A DNA stretch of 64,000 nucleotides, taken from Yuukianura sp. NJ FZ-2021 (taxonomy: Eukaryota). The notes beneath the pieces are model-generated. The model saw only the letters and a list, made by a program, of their open reading frames with translations. It searched no databases and was not told the DNA's origin. How positions within the stretch are numbered: the first letter of the stretch is position 1; each line of letters begins with the position of its first letter. The translations under genes and the position numbers were made by a program. The DNA is taken from contig CM102284.1 of the NCBI GenBank assembly GCA_046563655.1, positions 868,001-932,000 of the forward strand. The letters run 5' to 3'. Positions 15,489 through 62,052 of this stretch are shown in pieces.

Positions 15489-16353
15489 TGTTGCTATACA
15501 ACCTTCAGTTAAAAACTCCGTTTCACAGTGCTAAGTCACACAGTTTTGTTTAAGCTGCTTCTAAATTTTAAACAATGTTGATTTCATTTGGTGTTTAATT
15601 GGCAGTTTAGGTTTAGTTTTAAGTTTGGAAATCAATACCGTCGTAGTGTGTGCTCTCGGTATAGGTTACTCAAATTGGCAATTACCCTAACATTAGCATT
15701 AAACAGTAAACCAAAAGTATGGTTTGAATTTGGATTTTGATTAGTAATTCAGTCCGGAACGGTTAAGAGTACTGAAATTTTAAATTTCCCGGGACCTCCA
15801 GCTCCTGAGCCTATCAAAAGTACAAGGAAACATAATGGAGGGAGTTTAAATATTCCTTACTGACGCGAATAAGCCTAACTAATATGTGCTAATATGTGCT
15901 AATAAGTGCTTATGGAAATTCAAGTTCGTTTTTATCAAATTTCACTTTAGCACTCAATTTTTAAAATTTATGGCCAAATGTAACTATGTGATGCCAGTTT
16001 TCTATGAAGCATAAACCATGCAAGAAATTTATGGCGGTTCGATCCGGAATTTTTAGCACGCTTCGAGTGATTGGCTCGAGTGAAACTTTGAGCTAACGAT
16101 GATGAGGTCAACAGGGTCAATGTCAAATTTGTTTTTTTAGAATGAACTTTGGCACAAGTTTTGACATTTTGGACTAAAAATGAAGTCAAAAGTGTCCAAG
16201 GTTCGTTATCAACCAAAACTATTTCGAATGTTTTGATTAGACACACTGATTATCATTAAGATACCAGCGAAGGTAAAAACAACGAAATTTTTTGAAATCA
16301 ATTCAATCGACCTTCAATTTAAAAAATTTGAACCTTGAAAAATTCTAACCAAA

Positions 16354-22078: not shown

Positions 22079-22679
22079 AATTCTGGTAAAAAAATTTGAA
22101 ACACAAAGCGTTATGCCTAAAATCGACATCAATTTTTTCTGGTTTTGAAGAATTTGCTGATTTTTCGATAAGGTTAAAACTTTTATTGATAATATTAAAA
22201 AGTTTGAAAAATGACATGAACATTAATGAAATTTCAAAGTTAATTTAATACAAAATTGTCACGAAATGAACATCATAAAATTTTCAAGAGAGGAAAAAAA
22301 ATTCTAAATGCTTAGCACAAAAGGTCAAAGGTCAACTGCAAGGTCAATGTGAAAGTGAACATGCTTATGCTAATAGTGGTCAAAATTTACCAACCGTGTT
22401 AAATTTTTTTCCAGAATTTGCTTCCAACTATTTTAAACTCATTAATTAATATACATAATTTAAAAACTTTGACCTAAGAAAAGCTAGGATTAGACAATAA
22501 ATTCTCACGTGATAAAAATGCAACACGAAAGAACAAAAACTTGTGAAGGTCAAAATTTAGTTTTCACTTTACTGTGCTACATTGAAAACAGTATGCAGAT
22601 AGACATCTACCCACCCTACTCTATGTAGAAAGTTTCGAAATTTTGAAAAGTTCAAAAAAAATTCACTTCATAGAAAAAG

Positions 22680-25073
22680 ATGTTCAAGTGCTACGCTGTT
22701 GCCGCTTTGTATAGCCAATTCCTCATACTTTCAACCCTCCAACTACAATTTCCCACCGACTTTCACCCCAATTGTGACGTAAATTTTCTAGATATCAACA
22801 TGGGTGACCGTCCAGTTGACCTTTCGAGGTCAATCGCAAGGTCAATGACCTTCTACCAACCAACTACGGTATATAAGTCATGGACACACAATGATTCTGA
22901 AACGAAGAAGTCAGCTGACAAGGGTGGTCGGTCCGGTAAACTCTACAACACGACTGGCATGACCATGGGCCCAGGTCTGCTCAACCGCACAAAATGTTCC
23001 TGGAACATTGTCTTTTCTTCAGAGTGCTTCAACCGAGCAATTCCGTCCATCATGTACCCACAACTCGACCGTACTTCAACCATCCTCATCCTTGCCATAC
23101 AGTTACCCCAGAACGATCAATCAGCCTGCTTTGTACCGCGGTACTTTCATATCTCTGGACTCGGTCACGCGCAGGCTCAAATTTACGTTTTTCTGCTTAA
23201 ACCGGACGGTTCAAAAATCGAATCTCGCTATGCCTTGAGTTATTTTTACAGCAAACCTTATAAACCGGGACAAATTGCCGAAATACCGCTCATGACGAAA
23301 CTTGAAACCGGAACGGAATTTGCCGATCTACGGTCCATTTGGTACCAGATCAATTCAAACTACCACGAAATCAGACTGTCCATTATTGAAGCTCCAAATG
23401 ACGCTGTCAGAGATCGGCACTTCAAAACACACGACAAGGGCGGAAGATTGATTAACTCTGCACCGTATGTCCAAGCATGGGAGGTTCATGCGGAGTTTGC
23501 TAATTTGGATTTTTCTTACCCCGAGTCAACTGATCCGCAATACAAAAGCCGACTTTTGACGGCTGAAAAACGTCTCGTTTTGGAATTAAAAAAGGACTTA
23601 AATTTCACATTATTGAGAGGGGAGGTGTCAAAAATCAATGAATTTCAAGATTCCCGCACTGCATCTCTTTACTATATAAGGCACTACAGTGGAAAGGCGG
23701 CACTTGGTGCCATTTTTTTAAATTTCAGACATATGAGCACAGACCAAGACATAATTTCTTCACGTGACTACGGAGTGGCTGAACACGTCGGAGCAAGTCT
23801 CAAACCAGGACTTATTTACTGCCGACATGCGAAAGAGGATGGAGATCCGATCGATTTTTTGTTTTGGTTCAACTATATCCAACCGAAAGCTTTAATCTGC
23901 ACTTTAGTCGCAGCTTTTGCAATAAGTATCACAAAAAGACTCAAAATTCTAGCAGCAATGAATTTATCAAGCGTCGTAAAATCAAAGTCGCAACACGCAG
24001 AAGTAACAAACTCACAGACGCGAAAATTAAAATATTCAAAATCAACTGAATCGCTAAACGCAGAAACACCAAAGTTGCAAAACTCAGAATCAACAAAATT
24101 GCAAAAGTCAGAATTAACAAAACTGCAAAACTCAGATTCAACAAAATTGCAAAATTCGGAAACGCCAAAATTGCAAAACACAGAATCACCAATATTGCAA
24201 AACTCAGAATCGGAAAAATCGCGAAAATTGACGTCGCGGAAGTCGAACAACTCAGCGCCGCAACGCAATAGAAAAGAACCAAAAGTCGGCATTTTTCTTA
24301 CTCTACTCTCCCTGATTATTTGCACCTCGTACGAAACTTATTTATCCAGTGAAGTTACGGTACCGCCACCACCATCAGAAATCGGAACCCTTCAACAGCT
24401 GATATCTCGCTACAAAATTATCATAAGAAAACAAGGCGGTAACATTTTCTCCTACAACGATGATGAACACTTCATTAAATCTAACTTTATCTACTGGTAC
24501 CTCTGGCACCTGTTCAATGTCACTGGAATTGTGGACTCTTTCGACAATTCTATCATCATGGTTAAGCGACACGTCAAAAATAGTGTTTCAATTGAGACCC
24601 TAGATGGCGCTGAACTGTTTACGGAGGCCTTCAATTTCAAGTCTCAGTTTTACCTCCAACATTTTGGACCGAAACCGGACAAACGCTGCAACTTGTTTCA
24701 CAAAAAGTTTGATCGAATTGAAACTAAAGTTTTGTTTTCCAAGTCCCCGAGCCCTTTAGCGTATCAGACGTCGGTTCGATTCCTAGAAGGAGGATTTCTG
24801 GACTTCTGGAGGGGACTTAAGGTCTACGTGGAGTCCTACTTGGACAAAGTGCTAACGGAACGGATGGAAGCAGAGAGACACCAACCCAAACCGTTTGTGC
24901 TCACCAACTGGCGAATTCTGCCGACGTTTGTAATTTTGGGCATTTTACTTGCGTTTTGCCTCCTGGAGTTCCTCTTTGAGCTCGAATTTTTTGCTTACAG
25001 AATTTTGCTGTCTACTTTTTCATTTGGCAAAATGAAAAAGTCGGCACGAAATTTTGAAATTTGCAAAATTTAG
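22680..25073 (+). CDS. Divergent ionotropic-receptor (iGluR-like) protein, single exon, 797 aa
   Basis: Long ORF with a signal-like N-terminus, an M1-like segment (FLFWFNYIQPKALICTLVAAFAI), M3-like LIICTSYETYLSSEVTVPP (cf. SYTANLAAFL), RFLEGGFLDFW in S2, and a final TM (ILPTFVILGILLAFCLLEFLFE). Confidence 0.7.
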   Translation: MFKCYAVAALYSQFLILSTLQLQFPTDFHPNCDVNFLDINMGDRPVDLSRSIARSMTFYQPTTVYKSWTHNDSETKKSADKGGRSGKLYNTTGMTMGPGLLNRTKCSWNIVFSSECFNRAIPSIMYPQLDRTSTILILAIQLPQNDQSACFVPRYFHISGLGHAQAQIYVFLLKPDGSKIESRYALSYFYSKPYKPGQIAEIPLMTKLETGTEFADLRSIWYQINSNYHEIRLSIIEAPNDAVRDRHFKTHDKGGRLINSAPYVQAWEVHAEFANLDFSYPESTDPQYKSRLLTAEKRLVLELKKDLNFTLLRGEVSKINEFQDSRTASLYYIRHYSGKAALGAIFLNFRHMSTDQDIISSRDYGVAEHVGASLKPGLIYCRHAKEDGDPIDFLFWFNYIQPKALICTLVAAFAISITKRLKILAAMNLSSVVKSKSQHAEVTNSQTRKLKYSKSTESLNAETPKLQNSESTKLQKSELTKLQNSDSTKLQNSETPKLQNTESPILQNSESEKSRKLTSRKSNNSAPQRNRKEPKVGIFLTLLSLIICTSYETYLSSEVTVPPPPSEIGTLQQLISRYKIIIRKQGGNIFSYNDDEHFIKSNFIYWYLWHLFNVTGIVDSFDNSIIMVKRHVKNSVSIETLDGAELFTEAFNFKSQFYLQHFGPKPDKRCNLFHKKFDRIETKVLFSKSPSPLAYQTSVRFLEGGFLDFWRGLKVYVESYLDKVLTERMEAERHQPKPFVLTNWRILPTFVILGILLAFCLLEFLFELEFFAYRILLSTFSFGKMKKSARNFEICKI
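24061..24228 (+). repeat. In-frame 24-bp coding repeat (KLQNSE[S/T]x), about 6 copies
   Basis: GCAAAA recurs at 24077, 24101, 24125, 24149, 24173 and 24197. Confidence 0.9.
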
Positions 25074-25966: not shown

Positions 25967-26205
25967 CTCAAAACCTAACACTTTTATAAATTGCAAATCT
26001 ATTTTTCCTTCTAGTACTCAACGGAAATTGGACATTGTTCGCTCTGTAGTTGTGCTGAATTTTATTTTTTCGGAAAACTTCCACATAATTACGCTGTGAG
26101 CACTTTGCTTTATGTTACTAGCTTCGTCGGGTTTTAGTTTTTGGGAACACTTCACGAAAATACGCTGTTACAGCTACAATAAAATTCAAAAGAAGAAGTA
26201 CAACA

Positions 26206-27855
26206 ATGCTGTCCAAAGCAACGTGGAATTATGTTTTGAAAACAATCGATGCTGGATTCAAGTGGAAAGTTTATTCCTTCAGAATAGTTAGGACAACCCG
26301 TGGATATAGCGTCATCACTTCTCAAAACGTTATTGTTAACAAGGTGTTAATGGCGGCAACTTTGAGTGTCAACATACTGCTAGCTGCTTTGTCGACCTAT
26401 GCAGCATCATTGTTTCCACACATTCCTCAAATTTCTGCCAGTTGGGGTGCATTAGCTGTTGCCGCCGCATTTGTGTGTGGCTTTCAACTGTGGTACTGCG
26501 TCTACATGAAACAAATGTGTTCAGCAATTTCGTCCATGCTCAAGTTTTATGCTCAACTCCGTAAGTACAATATTTTAACTATAGAATTACGTCAAAAGTT
26601 AAGCTTGTCTAGGCTTTTTATAACGCTCCTGGCCATTTTTGTTCATTTACAGACAAACGACATGGCGTGCCACAACATGCTCCACAAGGAGATGAATTTG
26701 ATGTGACGTTCAAATTTATGTATTTGGCATACATGTATATGCAAATGTTTGGTACGGCTACAGCGGTAGGGTTCTTCTTGTTCACTGACAACCTCCTTAC
26801 GAATTCCGGCTACTTTTTCGTCGCTCATATGCTAAAGTCATTTACTGGAGCTGAAAGTATTAGCACTTATGTCGTGACATCAACGAGTGTTTTGTTGATA
26901 CTTGTTACGTGCTTAAGCATAGTCCATGCTGGATCCATACTCTACCTTTATGCCAACCTGCTACTCATATATGCTAATACATGTCGCCATTGGATGAAAC
27001 ACTTGAGGTATGAAGTATGCATATTTTGCAATACAATGATACGCTTTCAGTTCTATATAATAGAGCTGCCAAAATATGTGCTTAAAACCAGTGAAATATT
27101 TAGTTAATATTTACTACCAAAACCCGAATATATTTATCTAAGTATTTACTATAAACTCTTCAGTATTTATAGAACAAAGTGTCATGTAAAAGCCTTGATA
27201 TTTCAAAAATCGTGAAGAAATGGCGCCAAATGTTTATGATTCTCATAAATATTTGGTATTCTTTTTCTTCTCCAAATTCTTTTTTAAATCTTGAAATATT
27301 TTCTATTTAAATATATACGTTTGGCAGCTCTGACATGACAAAATGATTTAGGAAGTGGAATATTTTGTTTATAGGAAATGCATTTGCAACGCAAACACAA
27401 ACACAACCATGCGAAATACGCATGAAACGGAATTCACAGGGCATCAAGTCCTCAATGCATTCATGAACGATATTTTCGCCAATGTTACTGCTTTTGGGAT
27501 TTATTTCTCAGAAGTCCTTTTAATCCTCGGAACCTACAAATGCATAAGACTTGGCGAAAAAGACTTCATTGTGTTCGTACAATTGGTCGCCACTGCCGCC
27601 GGAACTATATTTGTCGGACTCAAAACTATAGTAAATCTGGGAGTACTCTGTTACACCAATTCTGCTGAATGTTGCAGAGCTGGCCAATTTCAAATTCATG
27701 AAGGGATGGGCTGCAGCCGCAGATTTTGGAAGTCAAAGAAGCAACTTGTCATGCGAGTAGGACAGCAATTTGTGATGGACTCGAACGAATTTCTTCTTAC
27801 GTTGTTTGGAGTAATTCTCACTGACAATGTTACTACTCTCCTTCTTACGTTTTGA
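26206..27855 (+). CDS. Divergent 7-TM chemoreceptor (GR-like), 3 exons, ~396 aa
   Basis: Exons 26206-26560, 26653-27007, 27375-27855 in frame; C-terminus RFWKSKKQLVMRVGQQFVMDSNEFLLTLFGVILTDNVTTLLLTF. Confidence 0.7.
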
Positions 27856-28382: not shown

Positions 28383-30127
28383 TTAGTCATCTTTTGATTT
28401 GAGAGTTTCTCTGGACATAGATGTCGCTTTGCAGCGCTGTAGTTTTGATTTGACCAAAATTTCCAATAATTCTTCGCGCTTTTTGTGCGAAAGTGCTTTA
28501 GGTGCAAGGTTGGTCGTTGGAGCAAATGGCTTGTTCAGATCTGAATACATCCAATCTTCAGCCGAAAGCATGCGACTCCCGGTGATCATGTCCATCTCAG
28601 CATGGATCACACGACAAAAGTCATCCAGAGGCTACCGGAAGTCAAAATTTCAAAATTCATAATTCAGAAAAGTCAAAATTTTCCCAAAGTGTTTTTTACC
28701 AAGTCATTTTCGTCATATCCAAATGGGTTTTCAATTTCGTAGGCTACAGAGAGTATGCCGAGGAGGCAAAACGAGCCGAGTCCCACAACTATCAGCGCCA
28801 TCCAGCCCATCGTGCCAATAATTTGAAACGGAAGGCTCAAAATGTAGAGCCAAACGGTGACGTGGAGGTGGATCGAGTAGGCCATTGGAATTGGCGTTTT
28901 CAAAATACGTTCAAAGTTTGAAAAAGTGTCAACCAAACTCGTAAGTGCTGCAGAGAACAAATGGGAAAAAGATTAGCGCAAGTTACATTTTTTTGTAGTG
29001 GAAAATGTGGAAGCAACTAAATTAGGTACACGTAATATACGAAGTAACTATAGTTTTGTGTAAAATTCGGAGGGAGTAACCATATACTTTGTTTCGTAAA
29101 TATGGAGGGAGTAACTATCTTGTAAAATGTGGAGGTAGTGTGTTTTATAAAATAGGGAGGAATTAACTATCTGTGTGTAAAATATGGAGTAAATGTATGG
29201 AGTAAATATGTGTTTTGTGAAATATGGAAGGAGTAAGTTCAATTTTTTCTTATGAAGTTTGGAGGGAGTAACTAAATATTTTTTTAAATCTTACAGTTTT
29301 GCATAGTGGTAATGGCCCATCCTGGTGCTAGGTTGTTTGCATTAACGTATTTGATGTACGACAGAATGTAGTAAGAGATTTCAATCGGTATGTTCGTGAG
29401 TGTCGCAGTGTCGTATGCCATTAGCTGCGTTCCATGCGCTCCTCTTTTAACACCAACGGCCCTTGAAGCTGCATCTAGCTGCTCCCTTGTACTAAATCTT
29501 GGTAAATGCTCAATGAGACTGCGCAGATCATCGTACTGATCAGAATATTCTGCACGCAGGTAATGTTTTGTAGCTACTGCAAAAGCCAACAGCAAATTTA
29601 GCGCCGATTTCTTCTCAATTAGCGACTTCGGTTCAGGTTCCTCTACTACCGCCCAAATGCATCGTGTTAACTTTCTCACATCTTGGATTATCTGTGTCCA
29701 TAGTTTTCTTCCTTCCCAGTATCTGTGAACAAGGCAAAAAATTTAAACGCGGGAGTTCCAAAATTCAAAATTTTAAAAATTTGAATTACCCGGCACTTAT
29801 TTGTTTCATAATTTACCTGTCATAGGCACTGTTTGTTCTGAAACCCAAGAGAAGTCCGACGACCACGCCCAGAATTGGAATCAAAGTTTGCGGGAAATCT
29901 AGTCGAATTACGGACGTGTGAACCACCAAAATACAAAACGTATAAATCAAAATCAACACAACTTTCCACCAAACTGTAACAAAAACTGTGCCGCGCAGAC
30001 GCATCCACCACAGCAAGTCGTCTCGACTTGCCCCACTTATGTCCTCCATCCCTCTAACTACTGCTTGCACTTCCTTGGATTCTACCAAACATTTGATCTT
30101 TTCTTCAAGAAACTTGATCTTTTCCAT
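28383..30127 (-). CDS. YneE/UPF0187-type (microbial/plant VCCN-type) bestrophin-like anion channel, 4 exons, ~411 aa
   Basis: Exons 30127-29817, 29722-29295, 28947-28700, 28631-28383 in frame; signatures LLLGFRTNSAYDRYWEGRKLW, FAVATKHYLR, ERILKTPIPMAYSIHL, EIENPFGYDENDLPLDDFC. Confidence 0.9.
29040..29275. repeat. Degenerate ~30-35-bp tandem repeat in bestrophin intron 2
   Basis: Recurring (T)GGAGGGAGTAAC(TA) / GTAAAATATGGA; an inverted single copy occurs at ~56795. Confidence 0.6.
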
Positions 30128-31849
30128 TTCAATCTCCAAACTTTTTTTACAAAGTTCAAAATTGATGCTAAATTTTTCTTGAGTTGGAGCCAAAAGTTAA
30201 ATTTAGAGCTATGGAGCAGCACGTACACAGATTTCCGTGAAAAAAAAAGTTCAGCAAAGTCAGTCACATGTTGAAGTTTTGAAAACTTATGAAGAAACTG
30301 TAAGTTTAAATGGAGACACAAAGTTATCTAAACTATGATTAATTAACCATAAAGTCACAATTAACTAAAGTATTAAAGTTGTAGATTGACTATTTGGGTT
30401 AAGCTTATCTTGGCGGCTGCGCTTACACTTTCAACTTTTCTGTCGAGAATACACAAAAATTGTTAATCTTAAACTTGGATTTTAATCAGCAAACCAGAAA
30501 AGTTTGGTTACTTTTTCTTGTTTTTCTTGTTGCATGACAACATTTGATACGCAAAGCACCAACAAACCATCTCCTTTGTACTTTTTTTTTTGAAGTTTCA
30601 AGGTCAAGGTCACCTAATGTTGTACTTTGGTTTATGTGCCTTATGTTGTGCCCATGGTTTGCTGTGCTACCATACCCATATATGATGTCACCTCTCGCCT
30701 AATATACAGTCTACATTAGCATTTACGGGGCATTGCTTTCACTCGTTTTCCACCAAAAACGGAACTTTTTCTTAACGCAGTGTGCAACTTTTTCAAAATT
30801 TTTCCACTTTTCACTTTATTTTTTGCTTATTTTTAAAGTTTTCAGAATAAGCAAGCCAATCAGTAATTATAAACAAACTTATCGGTTGATAATTGTTCGC
30901 GGAATTACCTGTGCTCCTTAGTATTATAATAAACTAATCTAAAAGTTTATGAAAACATGATTTCGCAAGCTTATCAGATCATAATTTCCGTCCACTTTTG
31001 TTGCTCATTCGTATGACTAATGAAAATAGACGCCACTCATTTGTCATAGAAACGAAGGCAAACAAAATGTGCAAAATAAACTACGCTCTTTGTATACTTT
31101 TTGCAAAGTTGCAAAAAATTGAATGTTGCAAAGATACAGAAAAATCCTCCTCTACCACATAGTGTTCCATACTCCAAAATCCAGCTTAGGAGGAAAGCAG
31201 ATTGTTCAATTGACAAAATTTTTATTTTTTTAGCACACAAGCATAAAGGCCATGCACAAATTTTTCCTTATTGTGCAAAGGACAACTGTTTGAGGTTATT
31301 TAAGTTCAGATTTAAAAAAATTAGGCCAGTCAGAATTAATTGACACTTCATCAGTTTTTGTGCTTCATTCATGTCAATCTCTTCCTCTTGTGGTTACGCA
31401 TTTGTGGTTGACTGTTCAATATTAAACTGACAGTTCCAACTTAAAAGTTTCAATTTTTTGGCAAGTGTTGGCTATCTTTTTCTTTATCTTTTGTGTTAGT
31501 GTTGCTACACTCTGCTAAACAGAGTAAGTTCAAGTTCCTATACTGGTAAGTCAGTGGGACACGAAGAATGTTTTTTGTATTGAGGTGCAGTAGGCTAAAA
31601 TTACACTTTGTGCTCCTTTAGTTTCTATTTTGAACTTTGTTTACAGGTTTCATTTTTGAAAAGGTCACTTTTTCACTGTTTGCATTGGAATTTCATGAAA
31701 ATGGAGTTGAGACACGTAGTGCTCAGAGTGGTAATAAACAAACCGGTGTTCGATTTTTTGTTGGGGTTTGAAACAAACCCAAGGAAAAATGTTGGTGTAA
31801 GTTGAACTTTTGAATTGAGGGGAATTTTTTTTTTTTGAATTTGTAGGAC

Positions 31850-33018
31850 ATGGGGATCCAAGGAATCCTGACGTATTTAATTTTTTCACACTTCAATCCA
31901 TTCATAACTTGCCAAAACCTTGGACCATCAACTAAGGTAAAAGTTAATACTAAAATATTAAACTTTACGTTAAGAATTTAACTAATCAGGTCAAAGGTCA
32001 GGTGAAACTTAACGTTAATGGAAAGATCAAGTTGAACTAAACAAATTTTGCTTAGGCCTAGTCACATCAGAGGTTTTATGACAAGTTTTCGCCGTTTTCC
32101 AAAGAAATTGAAAAACACAAGGATTTATTTGTTTTTAGTTTTTGTTTATTTTTTATTAAAAGTTTTATTTTGAAAAAAAAATCAATTATTTTACAAAAAA
32201 AAATTTCATTTGTCAAAAATTTGCAAAATTTTCAATTTTTTCTGATTCTGCAGGAACATGATACTCTGAGCGCCGGAGTTTCAAATCAGCCAATCATCGA
32301 CGAGACTTCAAAATTGACCGAAAAAAGTTCATATACTGCAACCTCCACTGTCGGATCGAGTGAAACTGCCCGGGAAATTTATCTCTTTTTTTCAAATGAC
32401 TTCGCCTTTGGTGCCATCATCGCCTCCATCATATTTCTCCATGCTTTCATCCTATTCGTCATGGGACAACCAATCATATCAAAGAGCGGGAAAATCAAAT
32501 TGTGGGAGGGAAATATCAACGGACCAGAAAATTCGCAACAAATTTCCGACTGGTACACTTTCAGCCATGTACTTCACGGAGCCATTTTCTATGGAGTGGC
32601 TGCAGGAATAGTTGCTCTCTTCCCATTGGCTGACGTTGGAGTCAAAGCGTTTTTCATTGGTGCGCTGCTTGTGGAAGGTTTATGGGAAGTGATTGAGAAC
32701 TCTCCTTGGGTGATTGAGCGTTACAGAGCAACTGCATTGGCCAATGGATATAACGGAGACAGTATTCTAAACAGCATCTGTGATACTGTTGCCATGTCAA
32801 TTGGCTTCTGGTTGGCCTATGTCCTCCCCCCGTGGCTCACCGTGACCTTGGCCATTGCTGAGGAACTGATTTTGGCATTCCTTATTCGTGACAACTTGAC
32901 TCTCAATGTGATTCAACTCATTCATCCATTTGAAGCAATTTCAAAATGGCAAACGGCGGGAAATTCAAACTCAAATTCAGCTGCTGAACAACAGAATCTT
33001 AATGAAGCAAAAGAATAA
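31850..33018 (+). CDS. DUF2585/UPF0314 family membrane protein (bacterial-type), 2 coding exons, ~283 aa
   Basis: Exons 31850-31936 and 32254-33018 (phase 0); motifs MGQPII..G.IKLW.G...ENSQQISDWYTFSHVLHG, WEVIENSPWVIERYR, GYNGDSILNS, IRDNLTLNVIQLIHP..AI..WQ. The first exon is less certain. Confidence 0.85.
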
Positions 33019-34130
33019 ACTACAGTCAAAACCGGAACTCAAAAAACTTTTTACATTTTGATAGTTTAATTTAAAAAGAACTTTTGTTTTTCTCAACTTT
33101 TAATTAACATAATTAACGACAAAATATTTGTGTCGCCTCTGCTTTTTAATTTTCACTTCACTTCGTGTTCTTGCCTTTCAAATTCAGTCCTCGATTAACT
33201 ACCACTTTGAAAATAACCGCAAATGGGTTTTGCTTAAATCTGACGCAAATATTAATTGCTGGTGCTGCATCGTTAGTGTGAATTCTTACTAATTGTTCCA
33301 ATTAGCGGAAAATTAATATGTAACGTCAACATTTTTTGTTTTGTGGTAGGACTTACTCAAAAGTTTTTTACATTTTTTATTTAAATGTTCAGTTTTATGT
33401 TTTTCTAGCAACTGCTTATTGGGTCCAAGAAAAATAAATTCAATTTTTGATTAAGCTTCTATAACTTTGACTAACAATGCAATAAAATTCTGGAAATACA
33501 AAAATTAAGGTGAGTTTGTGTATACCTTTCACTTTAGGTTATATAGCTTACCCAGTAATTGTACAAGTAAAAAAAGTAATTCCAGTAGAATTTCAAAAGT
33601 AAAAACGAAATTATTAGTTTTTTTAATGTTTCTTTATGATTGTGAAATATACTCTGTAAGTTACGTCGAAACTTATTTTTAATTCCGTGCATTCGCAGAA
33701 TTTTGATTTTATCTTCAAACGAATCTTTTAAATTAGCCGAGTTTCGTTGAAATTTTCGGCCCTGTTTTCTGTCATCAATCATAAAAATTTTAGTAACAAA
33801 CCGCTTAAACAAAGGCGGTTCAATTTGAACTTTTTTTTTATATATTTGCTTGCATGGAATCGCCACCAAGCATTCTGAACCATAAGCTAAATATTTCATC
33901 TTTTAGCCTGTATTCCAAAACTAAAACTTTTCCAAAACTTTTAGCCCATGTTTTCTCAAGGCGACAGTATAATTGCGGAAGAGTAATACAGCCGTTGTTA
34001 CCCAATAGCCGTATAAACTTTAATCTAACGAAAACATTAGACTTTCTAGTTTTAGTAGGTCAACATACAAAAAATTCTTAGAATCTTAAAATTGCATTTC
34101 TGGTTATGAAATAAGGTCAGTAGGTTAACC

Positions 34131-35620
34131 ATGGAATTGTATTATCGAATTTTGGACTTTTCCTATCGAACATTCAATTCTTCACTCAAAGTATGCGCGA
34201 GCGGATTCAATCCTGGTTCACTTGACACTTCACAAAAGTACAGGAAAGTGTATCACCGGTGGATCCTATATGACGGTTTTATGTTACTACAAGTCATCAT
34301 CACTCACATTATATTAAAAACTTACACGTTTAGCCCATCTGCTGAAACATGCGTACATTTTCTTCTACCAGTTGCAATGTTAAATCCAGCACTTGATGTA
34401 ATTGGCAATACAAATCAAATCTACAGGCTCCAAACACTCAATTCTGTGCGCTACGCTATCGTATCAAATAGAGGTACAAATGCATTAATTTGTACTACAT
34501 TAAGTTACATTCTTACACTACAATTGCTTAAGCAATGCATTGTTGCATATAATACATAGGCATGAAAGTTACATATACTATGTAATATATGTAATTATTA
34601 TTGCATAATGCAAAACAAATGCATTAATATACAGTGGTGGCACCAAAACCTGCACACCCGAAATTTGTACCCCAACTAAAAGTGTGGAGGTTTCCGTGCT
34701 CCTCACTGTATATTCTGTATTATTATCAAACTGTACATATTATCAAAATTATATATGTGTACTACATACACAATACTAAAAAAATTGATAATATTTAATT
34801 ACCTTACCTTATCTACACATTTAAAAAAATTTCAGCAACAAGACGTTTGTGGAAAACCCTCCTCAGATCGAACTTAGCAGAGACAATGTGGATTCATGGA
34901 GCTTGGACGACATCTTTGATTATTTTTGTTGCGGGGTTTTACATCATGTACCAAGAAGATGCGATCTTGTATGTGCAAATTTTGAACAAAATCCTGTTTC
35001 CGTTCAAGGTACTTCCGCCAGGAGTTGTAACTATCATTGCAACTTTTGGTCGAATTACAACTGTAGGTGGTATTGCAATTTCATGGATCAAGGTTTACAC
35101 CGCAATTGCTCAAATTTCAATTTTTGTTACGGGATACACGGCTCTCTCAGATCACATTTTGGAGCAACCTGGCTTCAACCCACTGGGTTTTTATCGTCTC
35201 CGCCTTCTCATTGGTCTGTTTAACGAGGCCCATCGCAACCTCATTGCAATTCTGACACTGAATTTAGTCGTAAATGTTACAATGGCATATGGATTCGGCA
35301 TCTTGGAGGAATCGGCGGTGCTTGCTGGGAGTTTGACGCTCTTTGCAACTTTTGTGTTGCTGGGGCTGCTCAACTTTTATTGCAAGGCGGCTGCCATGCG
35401 GGCCAATTCACAAAAGTGGATTTACAAATGGCGCCAAACTTTTGCATGGAGCCTGGAACGGAACAGGGAAAAAAGATTCTACGTACGGAAGACGATAAAC
35501 TCAATTCGTGAATGTAGAGTAGAAGTGTGTGAAATGTATACGATTACGTACTCGCATATTTTCGTTATAATCAATACAATTGTGAACAATGCTATTACAT
35601 TTATTGCTTACTGTAAGTAA
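34131..35620 (+). CDS. Divergent 7-TM chemoreceptor (GR-like), 2 exons, ~375 aa
   Basis: Exons 34131-34473 and 34836-35620 (phase 1); C-terminus KTINSIRECRVEVCEMYTITYSHIFVIINTIVNNAITFIAY. Confidence 0.65.
34632..34708. mobile_element. 77-bp deletion derivative of the 14002-14215 MITE
   Basis: TA-CAGTGGTGGCACCAAAACCTGCACAC...GTGTGGAGGTTTCCGTGCTCCTCACTG-TA. Confidence 0.7.
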
Positions 35621-37428: not shown

Positions 37429-39371
37429 ATGAAATCTAAGCAAATTATTTTTTCCATTTGTATTTCCTTCCTGCTGGTCAGCGCCGTTGCAATGGTAAAT
37501 TGAAGTTTTGAAGATCTGTTTTTTTTTCTTTTTTTACGAATCATTATATGAATCATTATTATTACGAATCATAAGTCTAAAAAAAAGTTTTTTTAACAGC
37601 CAGATTCTGGACGACGTGACAAACGGAACTTGGACGTCAGAGAATACTTGGACGAAGTTGTGACAGGCGTAAAATTTTTCAGTTTTTGAATAAAAATTCT
37701 TGCACTTTCTCGGAGGAAACATATATTTTGACTCACGTTGCACATATTTTTAGATGAATGAGTTTGAGCAGCAACTGCTCAAACAACAGAAAGCCCTGCA
37801 ACTGCTTGCTGAACGCTACGCTGAACTTGTACTGAAAGATCAAGAGCTGCTCGAACAAAACGGAAAACTAGCAAAACAAGACGCAGACCTTGCTATTCGA
37901 ACAGCCAATCAGAACGCAGCTCTTCAACGGCGCGACGCAGAACACTCAAACCAAATTGCAGAACTTACCAATCAAACTCAAGAACTTTTTAGGCTAAACT
38001 CTCAACTTGTTGAAAAAGTTGCAAACGTCGAGAAACTGGGTGAAGTTGTTGCTAAGCGGGAAGAAGCCCTTGTTAAACAAAATGCAGAACTTACTCAACA
38101 ATTAGCACACGTCGGAGTAGCTTTGAATCAGAGCAAAGAACTGAAAAATACAATTTCAAGTACAATTGTTTTACAACAAGCACAAATGCACAACTTTTCT
38201 CTCCAAAACGACCAGTTTCGGAACACTTTGAGAGGAAATGTTGCACAAATGCAACAAAGTGCCAAAACTCAATCAGCTGTACTTGACAGCAAAATTGCTC
38301 AAATTTCTGCAGACTCTCAGCAAAAGTTGTCACGCACAGAAGAACGAATTAATCAATTAACGAATCGAATTTCACGTGCAGCTGATGTTGCAAAATTGGA
38401 ACTGACAGCACAAATGAACGATATCAACGCAAGGTTGAACAATTCAGTTGGTTTTCTACAGGCACAGGTAAGCTTTCGGAAAATAATGTGAAAAAAATAT
38501 GAATAATACAAAGTTAATTCATAGTAAATTGATTGATTAATTGGTTGAAGTTAAGCAATTTGATGTTTCGTCGTATTTTTAGGCTTCCAGTGCAACTACC
38601 GTGCAGACTGCAGCTCTTAAAAATTTTCAAGACGGTATTGCGCAGAGAGTGGAACAATTGGAGAGAAAACATGCAAATGAAACGCAAGTTTTAGCGGATA
38701 GGTTAGACAGCGGGCTGGATGTCATTCAGACCAAATTAATGCTAATAGCCACTCTATTGTCACTGCAACGCAGTTCTAACGAGGAATCGGTAAGTCAATC
38801 ATGGTATCATTTTTTTGAGGTTATGACTATGAGTTTTTCGTTCTGTTTTGTGAAAACTTGAAATGGTTGAGTTGGGTCTCTAACTTATAAATTTAATGTA
38901 AATTTTATATTTTTGTGACACTTTCGTGCTTCCAGGGTAAGCACTCATGACAAAAATGTTAAAATGTCAAAAATAAAAAAATGTTGTTGTTTTGGAATAC
39001 AGAGCGACAGTGGACCTACCGTAACGTTTTATCGTAACAAGCAATACAACGCTGGTTCAAGTAAATTAACAAATTAATTAATTAAACTAACTTCTTGATT
39101 CGTGAGTTAGTCAATTTTAAAACTAACAAAATATTTCGTAGAACAACCCGAGGAATTCCAGTTCAGCAGTTTATCTTGTTCCGGATCCGAATGCTGTCGC
39201 AATTTGGATCACTTGAATGATGATTCACAGTCTCTGCGAACGCGTAACGTCTGTGTCAAAGCTTACCTTGACAAAAACTGCTCCGGCCAATCACGAACTT
39301 TTGGAAAACATTCATCAATTTCAGATCTAGGCGACTTCAACGACAAAATCAGTTCAGTCAAGCCTTGCTAG
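37429..39371 (+). CDS. Secreted coiled-coil protein with C-terminal beta/gamma-crystallin-like domain, 6 exons, ~447 aa
   Basis: Exons 37429-37494, 37600-37668, 37754-38467, 38583-38789, 39003-39060, 39142-39371; signal peptide, RRDKR furin-type site, Q/E/L-rich heptads, then VTFYRNKQY...CCRNLDHLNDDSQS...CVKAYLDKNCSG...DLGDFNDKISSVKPC. Confidence 0.8.
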
Positions 39372-40033: not shown

Positions 40034-41107
40034 ATGGATTCTACGCAAATCATTTTTTGCCTTTGCATTCTCTTACTCCGTAGTGCTGTTGGAAAGGTAA
40101 AATTGAATTTCTTGAAAACCTCAACAATAAAATTGTTTTCACCAAAAGAATTTTTGCTTCTTTTTTAATGTTTTTTTTTAAATTTGCCTCCTACCAGCCA
40201 GACTTTGGGCGACGTGACAAACGGAACTTGAACATCCGACAATACTTGGAGCAAGTTGTGACAGGAGTAGGAATTTCCAATATTTACCTCAAAATGTTTC
40301 TTCAAAATAATGTTTTTAGAGCAAACTGCCAGTGAGTTTGAGTCACTTTGTACATTTCCAGATGAACCGCTTTGAGCAGCAACTGGTCGATCAACAGAAT
40401 GCCATGCAATTGCTTGCTGAACGCCACAGACAAGACGCAGAGTTATTAGCTGTCCTAATTGCCAGGCAGAACGCAGTTTTTCAACACCGCAATGCAGAAC
40501 TCACCCAACAAATTGAGCAACTTAGTAATCAAACCCAACAACTTTTTAGAATAAATGCTCAACATGTTCCAGAAATTGCAGAGCTCAGCCAACATGGTGA
40601 AGTTGTTGCTGAGCGGGAAGAAGTCCTTGTTACACAAAATACAGAACAGAACTCAGAACTTAATTTCATATGGATTCATTAAAATATTGTTTAAGGAATT
40701 TTGTTTTATTTTTGTTGTACGACAAACTTTTCCTAGCAAACGTTGCCTAGGAAAGCCGAGTATGAATTAAGCTTTGAATTAAGGTTACTTTTCCAAATTG
40801 GTTTTGTGTGGATCAATTTGAAAACTAAAAAAGTAATGTTTTGTAGAAAAACCTGAGGAGTTCAATTTTAGGACTTGCCCTTTGGAACGGAGCGGAATGT
40901 TGTCGAAATTTGGATCACTTGAATAACAACTCGAACTCTATGCGCACGGATAATGTCTGTGTCTATGTGTACCGGAAGAAAAACTGCTCTGGTGACAGCT
41001 TCTTTATTCGAAAGTATTCATCAATTTCAGAATTAGAAAGAGCCCTCCCTATACGGCAAAATCAGTTCAGTCCAGTCCAGCCCTGCCAAGGTGTGGCAAC
41101 TAATTAA
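40034..41107 (+). pseudogene. Truncated, frameshifted tandem duplicate of the 37429-39371 gene
   Basis: Exons 1-2 and the start of exon 3 are retained; homology stops at ~40650 (rest of exon 3 and exons 4-5 absent); the last exon from 40847 is out of frame before the CCRNLDH codons. Upstream 39570-40030 mirrors 36940-37425. Confidence 0.75.
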
Positions 41108-44056: not shown

Positions 44057-44587
44057 TTAGTAGAAGAAATTAATTGACTGTGTAAACAATGCGACTGCGA
44101 CCAGTAGAGTAGTCATACTGCCACTGCAATTGTGTTTCATCGTTGCAGCGTCTTTCGCGGATCCTGAATTTCCTGTTGCAACTTTAGCATCGTCCTTTGC
44201 AGATCCTGAATTTCCTGTTGCAACTTTAGCATCGTCCTTCGCGGATCCTGAATTTCCTGCATCGTTCACAATTTTCTGGATTTCAGCATCCGTACACTTG
44301 ATTAGCATCGGATTTCTGCCATTGCCCACAGTCGTCAGGTCACAGCATTTGTCCTTAACCTTCTTCGCAAGGTCAAGGTAATGGAGGGATTCCTTCTTTC
44401 GCTTGTCACTCTCAAACACTCTCCTCAACTTATCCATGTATTCTGACTCGCTGTAATGCCTTTCGCAAGCGTCTTCCGCAAATACTTTAGCCGTCTTCCA
44501 TTTATTCGTTTGATCCACGGCTTTGGCTTGCCCAGTGCAAAAACTGACGACTGCGAAGAAAACAGCGGCACTCAAAATCCAGCTCAT
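44057..44587 (-). CDS. Secreted, probably GPI-anchored small protein (C..CC..C), paralog A, with 14-aa repeats
   Basis: Signal MSWILSAAVFFAVVSFCTG; KKVKDKCCD...CTDAEIQKI; GNSGSAKDDAKVAT x~2.6 (42-bp repeat); hydrophobic C-terminal tail TTLLVAVALF. Confidence 0.7.
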   Translation of the reverse strand: MSWILSAAVFFAVVSFCTGQAKAVDQTNKWKTAKVFAEDACERHYSESEYMDKLRRVFESDKRKKESLHYLDLAKKVKDKCCDLTTVGNGRNPMLIKCTDAEIQKIVNDAGNSGSAKDDAKVATGNSGSAKDDAKVATGNSGSAKDAATMKHNCSGSMTTLLVAVALFTQSINFFY

Positions 44588-44975
44588 TTTTAGGATTGAA
44601 CAACGTGCGAATTCGTTGGAGAAGGGCATGACCCTCAGTTTTAATTCTTCCGATCAGCAAAATCGCGACCTTTTGAATGCTTGAACATGAAAAAGTTAAG
44701 TTTTGAATGCAAAGCATTTGTTATGTGTCAAACCAAATAAATTAACAAATCATTGTCATGGAAACCTGATCGGTAGTTCAAAAATATCGTTTCCACCAAA
44801 AATATCTGCAAAAATTAAATCTTAAAGCCAAGGGCATATATTGAGGGCTAAACTTAAAAAAACGAAACCCAAAGTTTCAATAATCAACAATATTCAGGAA
44901 ATTGTATGTAAGCAGTTTACTGAAATCATTGATTTGAAATGCCAATAAGCAACTTTACAGTAAAATTGAGAATAG

Positions 44976-45449
44976 TTAGTAGGAATCAGTTGACTGTGCA
45001 AACAATCCGACTGCGACCAGTAGAATAGTGATAATAATGCTGCTGAAATTGTGTTTCGTAGTCGCAGCGTCTTTCATTGATCCTGACTTTTTTATTTCAA
45101 CTTCAGCCTCCTTCGCAATTTTCTGGATTTGAGCATCCATGCAGTTGGTTAGCGTGGATACTCTGCCATCAGTCTTCACGTCACAGCATTTGTCTTTAAT
45201 CTTCTTCGCAATAGCAAGGTAACTGAGGCCTTCTTCCTTTGAAATTTCGATTTTGTTGCCTTTCTCATCCACACCATCTTCAAACATTTTCTTCAGGTTA
45301 GCAGTGTAGTTTGGAACGTAATTTTGGCAATCGGTGTTGGCAATTCGGCGAGTCAACTTCAGTTTAGCCGATTCGTCCAGCGGTTTGGTTTGTACGTTGC
45401 AAAAACTGACGACAATGGAAAAAACAGCGGCGTGCAAAATCCAGCTCAT
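44976..45449 (-). CDS. Secreted, probably GPI-anchored small protein, paralog B
   Basis: MSWILHAAVFSIVVSFC; KKIKDKCCD...CMDAQIQKI; tail IIITILLVAVGLF; clearly homologous to 44057-44587. Confidence 0.7.
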   Translation of the reverse strand: MSWILHAAVFSIVVSFCNVQTKPLDESAKLKLTRRIANTDCQNYVPNYTANLKKMFEDGVDEKGNKIEISKEEGLSYLAIAKKIKDKCCDVKTDGRVSTLTNCMDAQIQKIAKEAEVEIKKSGSMKDAATTKHNFSSIIITILLVAVGLFAQSTDSY

Positions 45450-45506
45450 TTTACGTTCGAATTCTCCGGAGCAGAGCTTGACCCTAACGCCTGCTACGGA
45501 CTTATA

Positions 45507-46170
45507 GTTCAATTTTTAATGTTTGACCCTTTGTTGATTTTCTTTTTCCATTCAAAATTCAGTTACAGGGGAAATGAAACGGAATTTTTGTTGCCGTAAT
45601 TATATTTAATTATAAAATAATATCTCCAGCAATCCAGGATAGAATTATTTGCGCTAAAAATATCTCCACATACATTATATCTGGATTAAAAAAATCTGGA
45701 TTAAAAGGTGGCAAAATTTTAAGGACCCATTCAATTAATTTAAAGTCTGGAAATATTCATTCGTGGAGATAAAATTTTTTTTTTATAGAAATTAGTTTTT
45801 GTGGCGGTGGCAAACTGCAAGGAGACCGAATGTACGTTCTAAATGTCGCCGAGAGTGATCCGGAATGTAAAAAGAAAAGCAGGAAATACGCGGAGTTTAA
45901 CTGACAGCAAAGTGCTTTGAGTTCGAAGTTCGAACTTGTTGAAAAGTGTCCGAACTTGGATGCCCTAAAAGTAAATAGTGGTAAGAATTAGGAAGCACAT
46001 TATCATTGAAATTGGAAGGGATTCACCATTAGACTCAACTTCAGATGAGGAATAGAAACAGCTTTTATGCTGTTCGATTGGTTCCGTACATTTGTGTTCA
46101 GTTATCGAAATTGCTATTAGCAACACAATTTGTTCACAGTAAACAAAGGGTCAAACATTAAAAATAAAAC
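45507..46170. mobile_element. TIR element flanked by TATA/TA, inserted upstream of paralog B
   Basis: GTTCAATTTTTAATGTTTGACCCTTTGTT at 45507 versus AACAAAGGGTCAAACATTAAAAATAAAAC ending at 46170; TATA on both sides; homology to paralog A upstream (AATTCTTCCGATCAGCAAA) resumes right after. Confidence 0.7.
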
Positions 46171-47027: not shown

Positions 47028-48324
47028 ATGGCCAGGGTTCGGTGGGTTGTAGTCTGTGTTGGACTTCAAGGGGTAAGATCAAATAACACTTAAAATTTAG
47101 TAAATTAGTAACAACTCTTTTAAATGAACATAACCTATGGCAATAATAACCTTAATAAACTAATAATAAATTAATTAGGTATTAAATAATAATAATAACT
47201 ATTAAATTAACTATTAAAATTAACTATTAAAATAACTATTAAATTAAATTAAAATTAACTATTAACTATTAAAATAACTATTAAATTATTAAATATTAAT
47301 AACAATTAAATATTAATTATTAAATAATAACCTTAAATGCCTCCAGCTTTCCTCTATTGCTGCTTTAGTCTTGGCCATACTAGGTTTCCCTACCAACAAC
47401 CCTTCTCAACCAATTGATGCACCGAGTACATTATCATTTCAATTGCTAATCGGCGCTTCATCTTTGACAATCATTGCTTTTGTGGCCGGCGTCCTGTTGG
47501 TCCTCAACTGGAACTCAGCTTCTACCAAAATCAAATTAGCGGTAAAGAAACAGGAAAAAGCAAGGTTCCTTGACCACGAAAAGTTAATTTTCGTTAACAG
47601 GCTGAGTACTACCTCACTTGTTTACAAAAAAAAAAAAACAAAATACAAAAAAAATAGTTACCACCGTAAAACCCATAGCTGTATTGTCACCCTGAAATGA
47701 AACGATTATTTTTTTTCAAAAATCAAAAAAACTGAGGTATTACACAACCTGCTAAAGAAAATCAAAGTCAACAAACCTTGGGGAAAAGTAATTTGTTAGT
47801 GTGTTAGTAATTTGTATAGTAAAGCAGGTGTAGTTTGTTTGAATTTTTGTTGGTTGCAGGTCATGTGGGTGAACATTTTCGTGGGAAACTTATTTTTCGC
47901 CAGTTCAATATACGTCGGTTGGGAAATGTGGAGTTGGAATAGACTTAGCTACGAATATTGCAAATCTAAATATCGCAGTTTCTCGGAACGAGAAGCATGT
48001 GAACACGATCTACAGTCAAAGGCGTTTTCGAACTTTCAGAGTGCAGTAAATTCAGCGTGGGTAAACAGAACGTAGCAAACTTTTTTTTTAATTTGATTTA
48101 ATTTTTAATTTTGAAAACGCAGGAAATCGTAACTCAAATATTGATATTCATGAAAAACTTATCCTTACTTTTTGTTTAAACCCGTTGTAGTATTCTTATT
48201 GTGACAATTATATTATATCTTATTTCAGGCAGGCTTCCTTTCTGGTATTACTGTCGATATAATATTACTTGGGGAATTGATAACCTGGTATTGTGCGAAA
48301 AGAGGTATCTACTTTAAAGAGTAA
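47028..48324 (+). CDS. Small 4-TM membrane protein (MARVEL-like), paralog A, 4 exons, ~178 aa
   Basis: Exons 47028-47072, 47347-47541, 47860-48060, 48229-48324, all phase 0; four hydrophobic segments; paralog at 52600. Confidence 0.65.
47561..47780. mobile_element. CAAGG...CCTTG MITE with 8-bp TSD (P-like)
   Basis: Flanks GGAAAAAG (47553-47560) / GGGAAAAG (47781-47788); absent from the short equivalent intron of paralog B (52920-52983). Confidence 0.8.
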
Positions 48325-52599: not shown

Positions 52600-53412
52600 A
52601 TGGACGCATTGGTCAGTTGGGTTAAAAAATGTGTTGGAATGCAAGGGGTAAGATCACGTACTTATATTCTCGAAACGCTTTTCAAATCGAGCTGACTTAT
52701 GACCATAAGCTTTGATGCTCCGAGGTACTCGCTACTGTTGCCTTAGTCTTGGGCATACTCGGTTTCCCTACCAACAACCCGTCCCTACCATTTGATGCAC
52801 CCAGTGCATTATCATTTCAATTGGTAATTGGCACTTCATCTTTGGCAATCATTGCCTTCATAGCCGGCGTTGTGCTGATGTTCAACTGGCATTCAGTTTC
52901 TGGCAACGCAAAACTGGCGGTAAAAAAGAAAAAGCAAAAAATATGTAAAAAAAAAAAATTGTTGGAATTTTTGTTTTTTGCAGGTCATGTGGGTGAACAT
53001 TTTTATGGGAAACTTATTTTTTGCCAGTTCAACGTATTTGGCTTGGGAAATGTGGAGTTGGTATGAACTCACGTTTGATTATTGCATATCCCAAGATTTA
53101 TCCGAACTTGAAGCTTGTGAAGACGATCTACAGTCAAAGGCGTTCTTGAACTTTCAGTGTGCAGTATGTTCTGCGGTAAGTTTTCTACTTTTCTTAAATG
53201 TTTATTTTGAAAACGTACGAATTGCAACTGAAATATTATTTTCGCAGTCAAACTTAGTTTTACCTTTTGTTTAAATCCGTCCTCATATTATTGGTGATTT
53301 AACGTTTCAGACAGCAGGCTTTCTTTCCGGTGTTGTTGTTGACATAATATTACTTTCGTTGCTTATAAGATGGTGTTTCGCGAAAAGAGGTATCTACTTT
53401 GAAGACTACTAA
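52600..53412 (+). CDS. Small 4-TM membrane protein (MARVEL-like), paralog B, 4 exons
   Basis: Exons 52600-52647, 52725-52919, 52984-53175, 53311-53412; shares ILGFPTNNPS, VMWVNIF.GNLFFASS, DLQSKAF and AKRGIYF with paralog A. Confidence 0.65.
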
Positions 53413-61400: not shown

Positions 61401-62052
61401 TTGGAGCTACACAGAGCCGTCTCGATGTTCAAAAACATTTCAATGATCCGTTCCACCTTATTTGGTGCCTGGAGACGAACAATATGTCAACAATGTCGGC
61501 TTAAACTTCTTATAGTTAGACTAATTTGACTTACTTGTAGATCAAACCGCCTCCATCCCTGATCGCTCTTGAACTTGTAAACGGCCCCAAGAATTTGACA
61601 TAGACCGCCTCCAGGCTTGAAGTCGACAAAAAACTTTGTCTGACAGTAATGAACAAAGGTTTTAGTTAGCATTGGATCAATGTCTGGCCAATTACTGTAG
61701 TTTATGCCTTCATTTTACCGGTATCCGAGTGATAGCTCTTTTCGAGGCATCCACTTGCTCTCCAAAATGATCTTCTTGGAACTGCCACAACTGGACGACG
61801 AGCCCACTGAGGGTTTTGTTCGTTGGCTGGTCAGCTTGAACATACTGTCCAAAAGACACTCGTTAAACTAAATTCGTTCTGAATTAAACTGAAATATAAA
61901 CTAAAAAAATTTTTACGTCGTTTCATACCTACCTTTTTAAAGTTTTTGAGGAGCCAAGTTCGCACTTGATCAAATTGAGAGAATATTTCCGGTGCGTCGT
62001 AAAACTTTGGGTTGGGTCCACCGTTGTTTTTCATCCACTGCTCAAATGCCAT
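58495..62052 (-). CDS. SMARCC2: SWI/SNF subunit SMARCC1/2 (BAF155/170; moira), ~9 exons
   Basis: [29 protein letters not shown] ([17 protein letters not shown]...[15 protein letters not shown]), SANT ([20 protein letters not shown]), and [41 protein letters not shown]. Confidence 0.97.

Follow-up and report, generated by a model that had tools for sequence, protein, structure and literature searches.

The window analysed here is a 64-kb stretch of DNA (64,000 nucleotides, 37% GC, zero N) from Yuukianura sp. NJ FZ-2021, contig CM102284.1, positions 868,001 to 932,000 of the forward strand. At 31850-33018 it carries a gene of the DUF2585 (UPF0314) family, the only copy found when tblastn was run across the window. 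An earlier note on this DNA had read the locus as a bacterial gene domesticated in an animal genome. The best explanation of the evidence as a whole, which we consider probable, is that this is a nuclear gene derived from an alphaproteobacterial DUF2585/UPF0314 gene, refitted in its host and encoding a membrane enzyme of the Lipocone type. Family membership, host context, base composition, the clade structure and the conservation of residues are observed directly, and the splice pattern, targeting, expression and enzymatic activity are predicted.

Membership of the DUF2585 family, proposed in the earlier note, was borne out by hidden Markov model (HMM) searches. Pfam DUF2585 (PF10755) was matched over its whole profile (positions 1-164 of 164) with E 2.6e-62 and 209.9 bits (gathering cut-off 25), and NCBIfam NF002099 (PRK00944, the bacterial UPF0314 equivalog) was matched over positions 16-194 of 195 with 225.8 bits and E 3.6e-67. 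The translation from 32254 has 254 residues, lies within a 318-codon stop-to-stop frame at 32062..33018 (+) and contains NSQQISDWYTFSHVLHG, WEVIENSPWVIERYR, GYNGDSILNS and IRDNLTLN, so that the open reading frame (ORF) is intact to 33018 and holds the full motif set described for it before. An alignment of 16 eukaryote-like sequences had 29 invariant columns, including D99, H105, H108, E145, E148, D169 and D177, and the window protein keeps every column that is invariant across alignments of 16, 22 and 85 homologs.

The only in-frame methionine, M70, stands at the end of the first transmembrane segment (TM1), and there is no in-frame ATG before it in the open frame; a bacterial-style gene is therefore unreadable from the window DNA, and a spliced 5' exon would be required. 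The strong acceptor, the in-frame upstream exon and the Ser/Thr-rich N-terminal extension to which attention had been drawn are all present in the sequence (Table 1). The acceptor at 32252-32253 has the richest pyrimidine content (0.75) of the 8 AG sites that the open frame holds, and candidate exon 1 ranked first among 18 upstream ATG-to-donor (GT) candidates. The N-terminus that it would encode is moderately hydrophobic and signal-peptide-like (maximum 12-residue hydropathy 1.62); it is a candidate for the true 5' exon. The second-ranked of the 18 would splice in frame over a 50-nt intron to a tttgtag acceptor ending at 31846 and is a possible further coding exon of the same gene. Residues 1-33 of the spacer encoded at the start of exon 2 are disordered in the predicted model, with a predicted local distance difference test score (pLDDT) <50.

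On both sides the gene is flanked, in sequence free of N, by split ORFs of animal families, namely SWIRM/SMARCC, dynactin p62, an acid-lipase N-terminal region and a rhodopsin-type G protein-coupled receptor. Ranked by identity across the whole query, the matches closest to the SMARCC exon come from two springtails, Allacma fusca (59%) and Orchesella dallaii (56%); between their scores fall those of a scallop (45% identity) and of a moth match covering 25% of the query, with insects at ~50% next. On this showing the host is a hexapod, most probably a collembolan that is no near relative of either springtail. The GC content of exon 2 (0.441) and that of its third codon positions (GC3, 0.437) fall within the ranges of 12 host ORFs (GC 0.37-0.47, GC3 0.31-0.49), the intron has a GC of 0.243 and the gene flanks are at 30-34%; for 80 named bacterial loci bearing the family the median GC was 0.634 (range 0.458-0.73). 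With its host-like GC3, the lack of an ATG before TM1 and the strong acceptor after a 24%-GC intron, the gene is not contamination.

Table 1. Coordinates of features in the window; residue numbers refer to the translation from 32254, and exon and intron borders are predicted from sequence.
Feature	Position	Strand	Details
Optional extra upstream exon	31695..31796	+	34 codons from ATG 31695; donor GGT/GTAAGT; predicted
Candidate exon 1	31850..31936	+	ATG start, 87 nt, in frame; donor AAG/GTAAAA; predicted
Intron	31937..32253	+	317 nt, GT..AG; polypyrimidine acceptor TTTTCTGATTCTGCAG ending 32253; predicted
Exon 2	32254..33018	+	254 codons + TAA; Ser/Thr-rich spacer, TM1, entire DUF2585 domain
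Ser/Thr-rich spacer	32254..32373	+	residues 1-40, 15 S/T (manual count on translation)
TM1	32383..32463	+	residues ~44-70; M70 at its end
DUF2585 (PF10755) match	32452..32958	+	residues 67-235
S-K-S at the bacterial C-x-C site	32479..32487	+	most bacterial members have C-x-C here
D99-W-Y-T-F-S-H105-V-L-H108	32548..32577	+	predicted H2 catalytic His; Asp six residues upstream
W144-E145-V-I-E148-N149	32683..32700	+	predicted H3 catalytic Glu; second Glu three residues downstream
G168-D169-S170..N173-S174..D177	32755..32784	+	predicted H4 acidic and polar positions
AATAAA hexamer	33014..33019	+	overlaps stop codon; possible polyadenylation signal, weak in AT-rich DNA
SWIRM and SWIRM-associated domains of SMARCC	58857-61486	-	split ORFs matching an animal family

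Relatives in bacteria and arthropods

A search of 5.8 billion proteins produced 4129 candidates and 2699 matches at E <=0.001. The top matches to the window protein were P0002, P0003 and P0004 (68%, 61% and 58% identity), and the named ones among the best 120 were Alphaproteobacteria (Mesorhizobium, Hartmannibacter, Stella and Hyphomicrobiales) at 50-57% identity. In a scan of species genomes a relative was encoded in at least 595 of at least 600 matched stretches, the best 80 of which, at 42-57% identity, came mostly from Mesorhizobium, Bradyrhizobium and other Alphaproteobacteria and from a few metagenome-assembled genomes (MAGs) otherwise labelled, and 29 of 30 Atlas matches were bacterial DUF2585 clusters. 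The family is patchy even within its home bacterial class: in an even sample of 401 genomes from the class of Stella, a query from one of the eukaryote-like groups described below (clade II) found 5 matches at E <=0.001, with 41-48% identity.

The named animal matches were confined to one springtail and three sciarid flies, a patchy distribution and not the broad presence across Metazoa that, according to the earlier note, would have refuted its reading. A protein of Bradysia odoriphaga shares the 90% cluster of P0012 with 'UPF0314 protein bll0647-like [Bradysia coprophila]', whose contig measures 15.2 Mb. Searching with a profile built from 16 eukaryote-like sequences found 'UPF0314 protein BBta_0150-like [Folsomia candida]' (P0288, 270 residues, 55% identity, 19.5-Mb contig) and two Pseudolycoriella hygida proteins (P0251 and P0256, 193-Mb contig). 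These arthropod homologs lie on large, nuclear-size contigs, are 43-55% identical to the window protein and, like it, are without the C-x-C pair (P0251 and P0256 being judged by eye), and P0288 and the Bradysia proteins P0244 and P0245 have a hydrophobic N-terminus and a spacer before TM1, the architecture predicted for the window gene. Annotated homologs in Folsomia and sciarid flies are thus already known, and the window gene is not unprecedented; no published discussion of animal DUF2585 genes was found, though supplementary tables of horizontal gene transfer (HGT) may include the Folsomia gene. The public model of P0251 (474 residues) fuses C2H2 zinc fingers to the DUF2585 domain and looks like two adjacent genes merged by annotation, since its second half begins with a hydrophobic segment of its own.

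Among 50 metagenome loci, 44 had a GC of 0.52-0.68, and P0002 was absent from the set. Only L001 was useful as a eukaryote-like ortholog; it is a 6.1-kb contig with GC 0.43 and few long ORFs, and its DUF2585 relative is 48% identical to the window protein, a distance at which synonymous sites are saturated, has no methionine before TM1 and starts directly after an aaatttag acceptor. At 5014-5682 of L001 the C-terminal RDNLTLN and SKWQ motifs are lost without a frameshift, and the branch is long (0.92), so that this may be a decaying or divergent copy. A second low-GC locus, L019 (GC 0.37), was rejected as a eukaryote-like ortholog, as its short N-terminus and retained C-x-C give it a bacterial look.

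For the phylogeny, 38 eukaryote-like rows and 51 bacterial representatives were picked by hand from 189 retrieved proteins; apart from a handful of near-duplicates and a single very short row, every eukaryote-like sequence was included. The unrooted maximum-likelihood tree (89 rows, 195 columns) was built under LG+C20+F+G4 with posterior mean site frequencies (PMSF). A single branch divides all 38 eukaryote-like rows from the 51 bacterial ones, with an ultrafast bootstrap support (UFBoot) of 95 and a Shimodaira-Hasegawa-like approximate likelihood ratio test (SH-aLRT) support of 93, and one change suffices in 94% of 200 bootstrap trees. Of all rows, P0062, a bacterial one, was alone in failing the composition test, and P0060, which is bacterial and AT-biased, remains among the bacteria. 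The window protein clusters with P0002, P0242 and P0042, the last being the relative on L001 (99/91); a 21-row clade with all sciarid sequences has 100/100 support, with Folsomia, P0258 and P0004 branching near it, and clade II, of 10 rows, also has 100/100. The Folsomia P0288, Bradysia P0245 and P0244 and Pseudolycoriella P0251 and P0256 proteins all share the eukaryote-like clade with the window gene. The nearest bacterial group (P0005, P0006, P0008, P0011, P0015, P0039 and P0108) is metagenomic; among named entries it is matched best, at 61-69%, by MAGs of uncultured Alphaproteobacteria. The phylogenetic check proposed in the earlier note thus separated the eukaryote-like copies from the bacterial ones in a family that is overwhelmingly bacterial.

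The two sides differ at the C-x-C motif after TM1 and in the N-terminus. The motif is present in 69 of the 80 named bacterial loci (2 are without it and 9 were unscored) and in 127 of the 189 proteins (13 unscored); the 49 proteins without it comprise 37 eukaryote-like sequences, 9 bacterial-like ones and 3 that were too short or mis-anchored to score. At least 30 residues precede TM1 in 16 of 37 eukaryote-like sequences versus 2 of 47 scorable bacterial ones, and 10 of these 16 begin with a methionine and a strongly hydrophobic 12-mer (threshold 2.0, under which Folsomia at 1.84, P0265 at 1.88 and exon 1 of the window at 1.62 fall). Many other eukaryote-like entries begin at an internal MGQP, the outcome expected when a prokaryotic gene caller meets an intron-split gene.

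Bacterial cpCone-DUF2585/UPF0314 proteins (Mesorhizobium, Bradyrhizobium and Stella, 42-57% identity) have the same full domain, invariant polar residues and helix order as the window protein, whereas the window gene differs from them in its predicted intron, signal-peptide-like exon and Ser/Thr-rich spacer, in S-K-S for C-x-C and in a GC of 0.44 against ~0.63. It also stands without the operon partners reported in PMC12419801 for bacterial DUF2585 (GNAT, GlcEF and HslVU). After transfer, the gene would have adopted the base composition of its host and acquired one or more introns, the Ser/Thr-rich spacer and a new 5' exon, which provides a start codon and an N-terminus resembling a signal peptide; the C-x-C pair of the bacterial proteins would have been lost. 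The presence of N-x-S/T sequons in the spacers of P0004, Folsomia (P0288), P0038 and P0253 suggests that the spacer is lumenal or extracellular. If it is lumenal, we infer that TM1 would cross the membrane from the lumenal to the cytosolic side and that the loops with the catalytic residues would be cytosolic, an orientation that fits the loss of the Cys pair.

Predicted fold and activity

The earlier note had called DUF2585 an uncharacterised membrane family typical of Alphaproteobacteria. The second part agrees with the matches given above, and the first has been overtaken, since the family is now placed as 'cpCone-DUF2585' in the Lipocone superfamily, beside PTDSS1/2, with a predicted role in lipid head-group exchange or cleavage (PMC12419801). 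There it is described as a bacterial family, and the main text of that paper has neither 'Collembola' nor 'springtail' and a single 'arthropod' passage, on another family. The ancestral Lipocone site is given as a His (H2), a Glu (H3) and an Asp (H4), and the cpCone signature as a polar residue at -6 from the His together with another Glu at +3 from the first (PMC12419801). The window protein has both halves of this signature, with D99 and H105 in DWYTFSH and E145 and E148 in WEVIEN, and for H4 it has D169 and D177, either of which may be catalytic; all six residues are invariant in the alignments of 16, 22 and 85 sequences. The H..H/E/D residues in which the earlier note saw a hint of metal binding are, following PMC12419801, predicted to be catalytic.

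PTDSS1/2 are described in PMC12419801 as having the same circularly permuted cone fold and His/Glu/Asp site, with the Asp at -6 and the Glu at +3, and both signatures occur here; the window protein, with a core of ~190 residues against the 335 residues of chain 9b4f_A, falls outside the PTDSS family. For a 201-residue construct, the predicted model reached a pLDDT of 92.2 and a predicted template modelling score (pTM) of 0.88, with hydrophobic helices at 63-83, 91-109, 132-151 and 154-172; an earlier model had a pLDDT of 72.3. Foldseek gave no match at E <=0.001 with either model, and the best hits of the VIA-wide fold search were a PsaL subunit (Z 6.5) for the earlier model and ALMT1 (Z 4.9) for the later one, with a WLS-WNT8A entry among the noise-level matches.

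The protein would then be an integral membrane enzyme with five helices, belonging to cpCone-DUF2585 in the Lipocone superfamily, with a predicted pocket at the membrane surface formed by H105 (with D99), E145 (with E148) and D169/D177. Its activity would be transesterification or cleavage at a lipid head-group phosphate, like the base exchange of PTDSS1/2, in a membrane of the secretory pathway. That it is a lipid head-group transesterase or phosphoesterase of such a membrane is an assignment to which we give roughly an even chance. PTDSS enzymes need calcium, and this is the one point in favour of the metal binding at which the earlier note had hinted.

Origin of the gene

Since annotated relatives exist and the eukaryote-like sequences form a single group, the step from bacterium to animal was probably old. 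The window lineage probably either inherited the gene or got it from another arthropod. Horizontal acquisition followed by intron gain, as the earlier note proposed, is consistent with the HMM matches, the genomic context, the composition, the splice features and the tree; an event private to this animal is not, given the relatives in Folsomia and Sciaridae. The soil bacterium that the note had named as donor is plausible, the candidates being Alphaproteobacteria, and is not pinned down.

Contamination or a chimeric assembly, by which a bacterial gene would have been put into animal sequence, is very improbable. It would draw on the linkage having been read from a single assembly; only 5 DNA runs from 2 studies contain part of the stretch (shares 0.07-0.36). 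It has to face a gene GC of 0.44 against a bacterial median of 0.63, a bacterial-style ORF that, with TM1 included, would have no start codon, AT-rich flanks and intron in a window free of N, a best bacterial identity of 57% among the best 80 relatives, and similar genes of other arthropods that lie on contigs of 15-193 Mb. The idea of a relic in decay or silenced, with an ORF that looks intact and is unexpressed or non-functional, has somewhat more in its favour and is still improbable: the sequencing runs matched to the stretch include no RNA run, the start codon depends on the predicted exon, and the relative on L001 (P0042) is without RDNLTLN and SKWQ on its 0.92 branch, but 254 codons have stayed open in DNA of ~35-44% GC, all columns invariant in 16, 22 and 85 homologs are retained, and the splice signals are clean and the codon composition host-like.

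Two further accounts concern the history of the whole group. We find hardly credible an ancient eukaryotic DUF2585 gene that came down by vertical descent and disappeared from most animals; the eukaryote-like sequences do form one group, but the family is broadly bacterial (at least 595 of at least 600 stretches and 29 of 30 Atlas matches), and with only a springtail and sciarids among the named eukaryotes very many losses would be needed. Greater weight, at a level we would still call unlikely, goes to independent acquisition, in which springtails, sciarids and other groups too each took the gene from related, unsampled bacteria, and the clade reflects the donors or AT-driven bias. The very patchy distribution among named animals (1 springtail and 3 sciarids) speaks for it, as do the absence of C-x-C also from 9 bacterial-like sequences and 2 of the 80 named loci, the FYMINK-rich composition of all eukaryote-like rows, and the hundreds of independent HGTs in springtails, with 809 in F. 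candida (PMC5490193). What tells against it is that one 95/93 branch parts all 38 eukaryote-like rows from the bacteria, that no eukaryote-like row fails the composition test and the AT-biased bacterial P0060 stays apart, that none of the best 80 bacterial genomes exceeds 57% identity, and that the clade II query reaches only 41-48% in 5 of the 401 sampled genomes.

A number of observations weigh against an old transfer followed by refitting as a Lipocone-type enzyme, and they are collected here. Inside the eukaryote-like clade the backbone is weakly supported (71-79); 32 of the 38 rows are without a named host; and the N-termini of clade II are short and bacterial in style, its rows being called eukaryotic from their composition. 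Splicing, the 5' exon and expression are predicted from sequence features, the hydropathy of exon 1 (1.62) lies below the 2.2-3.3 of the N-termini of most full-length relatives, and the physical linkage to animal genes comes from one assembly. The NF002099 score of 225.8 bits falls under the curated cut-off of 241 bits, which points to a homolog diverged from the bacterial equivalog. On the side of function, a Pfam scan to E 1 returned DUF2585 only, with no PTDSS-family sequence match, and the PDB, searched with a sequence profile up to E 10, yielded nothing but a TetR-like chain (E 0.068). Human PSS1 (9b4f_A) was matched at noise level, with Z 4.8, a root-mean-square deviation (rmsd) of 3.5, 87 aligned residues and rank 27, and for the second model with Z 4.2, rmsd 4.0, 84 aligned and rank 23; sequential aligners handle permutations poorly.

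A transfer into springtail and sciarid lineages has a precedent. Canonical terpene synthases are reported from Sciaridae, Collembola and Acariformes, and the authors argue for transfer within arthropods (PMC11665903). The pattern there is the same as here, with a microbial-type gene in springtails and sciarids and not in other insects, and the springtail-sciarid clade of DUF2585, by repeating it, supports exchange among soil arthropods. The cases differ in that the terpene synthases are another protein family, that DUF2585 has no named mite member and that, with a backbone support of 71-79, any step between arthropods may have run in either direction for it. In F. candida, 809 foreign genes have been reported, 39.9% of them of bacterial origin and 330 shared with Orchesella cincta (PMC5490193), so that one more springtail transfer is not surprising.

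We suggest, tentatively and as something that may well prove wrong, that DUF2585 marks a pool of foreign genes moving among soil microarthropods, as the second family to do so after the terpene synthases, with bacterial entry in an early springtail-like lineage, a secretory refit, and later passage to the sciarid ancestor and perhaps to the hosts of clade II. The refit would have consisted of a signal peptide and a glycosylatable spacer, the periplasmic C-x-C would have been lost and the orientation of the enzyme may have flipped. Should this hold, the recipients would own an enzyme for lipid head groups that is missing from other animals. Since an animal copy keeps all predicted catalytic residues, some soil arthropods may produce or remodel a lipid absent from the rest of the animals, and the shared springtail-sciarid clade would be evidence, from another and independent family, of genes passing between soil arthropods.

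Neighbouring genes and other open reading frames

Head-to-head with the DUF2585 gene, at a distance of ~1.6 kb, lies a multi-exon bestrophin-family gene ('Bacterial/Fungal bestrophin', PF25539) at 28383-30196 (-). Three of its exons match PF25539 at positions 14-78, 78-147 and 189-274 of 288, and the ORF at 28383-28631, without a Pfam match, is probably a fourth. Its nearest Atlas cluster is 63% eukaryotic, with Ascomycota commonest, and the gene may be a second one of foreign, perhaps fungal, origin.

Rfam and tRNA scans of the window gave no match. The frame at 22674-25073 (+) is open for 799 codons and has internal TKLQNSES-like repeats and no Pfam family. Long ORFs for hydrophobic proteins that look multi-helical occur at 998-1840 (-), 13510-15530 (-), 26122-27855 (+) and 34110-35620 (+); no Pfam family was matched at E <=0.01 for 998-1840, 14700-15530, 26122-26706 and 34110-34559 with 34799-35620, and these may be lineage-specific membrane receptors. 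Three pairs of like neighbouring ORFs suggest local tandem duplications, namely 44057-44653 and 44976-45515 (-), which look secreted and start with MSWIL..AAVF, 47317-47700 and 52716-53066 (+), small membrane proteins with LGFPTNNPS, and 37754-38491 and 40320-40682 (+), which encode Gln-rich coiled-coil proteins.

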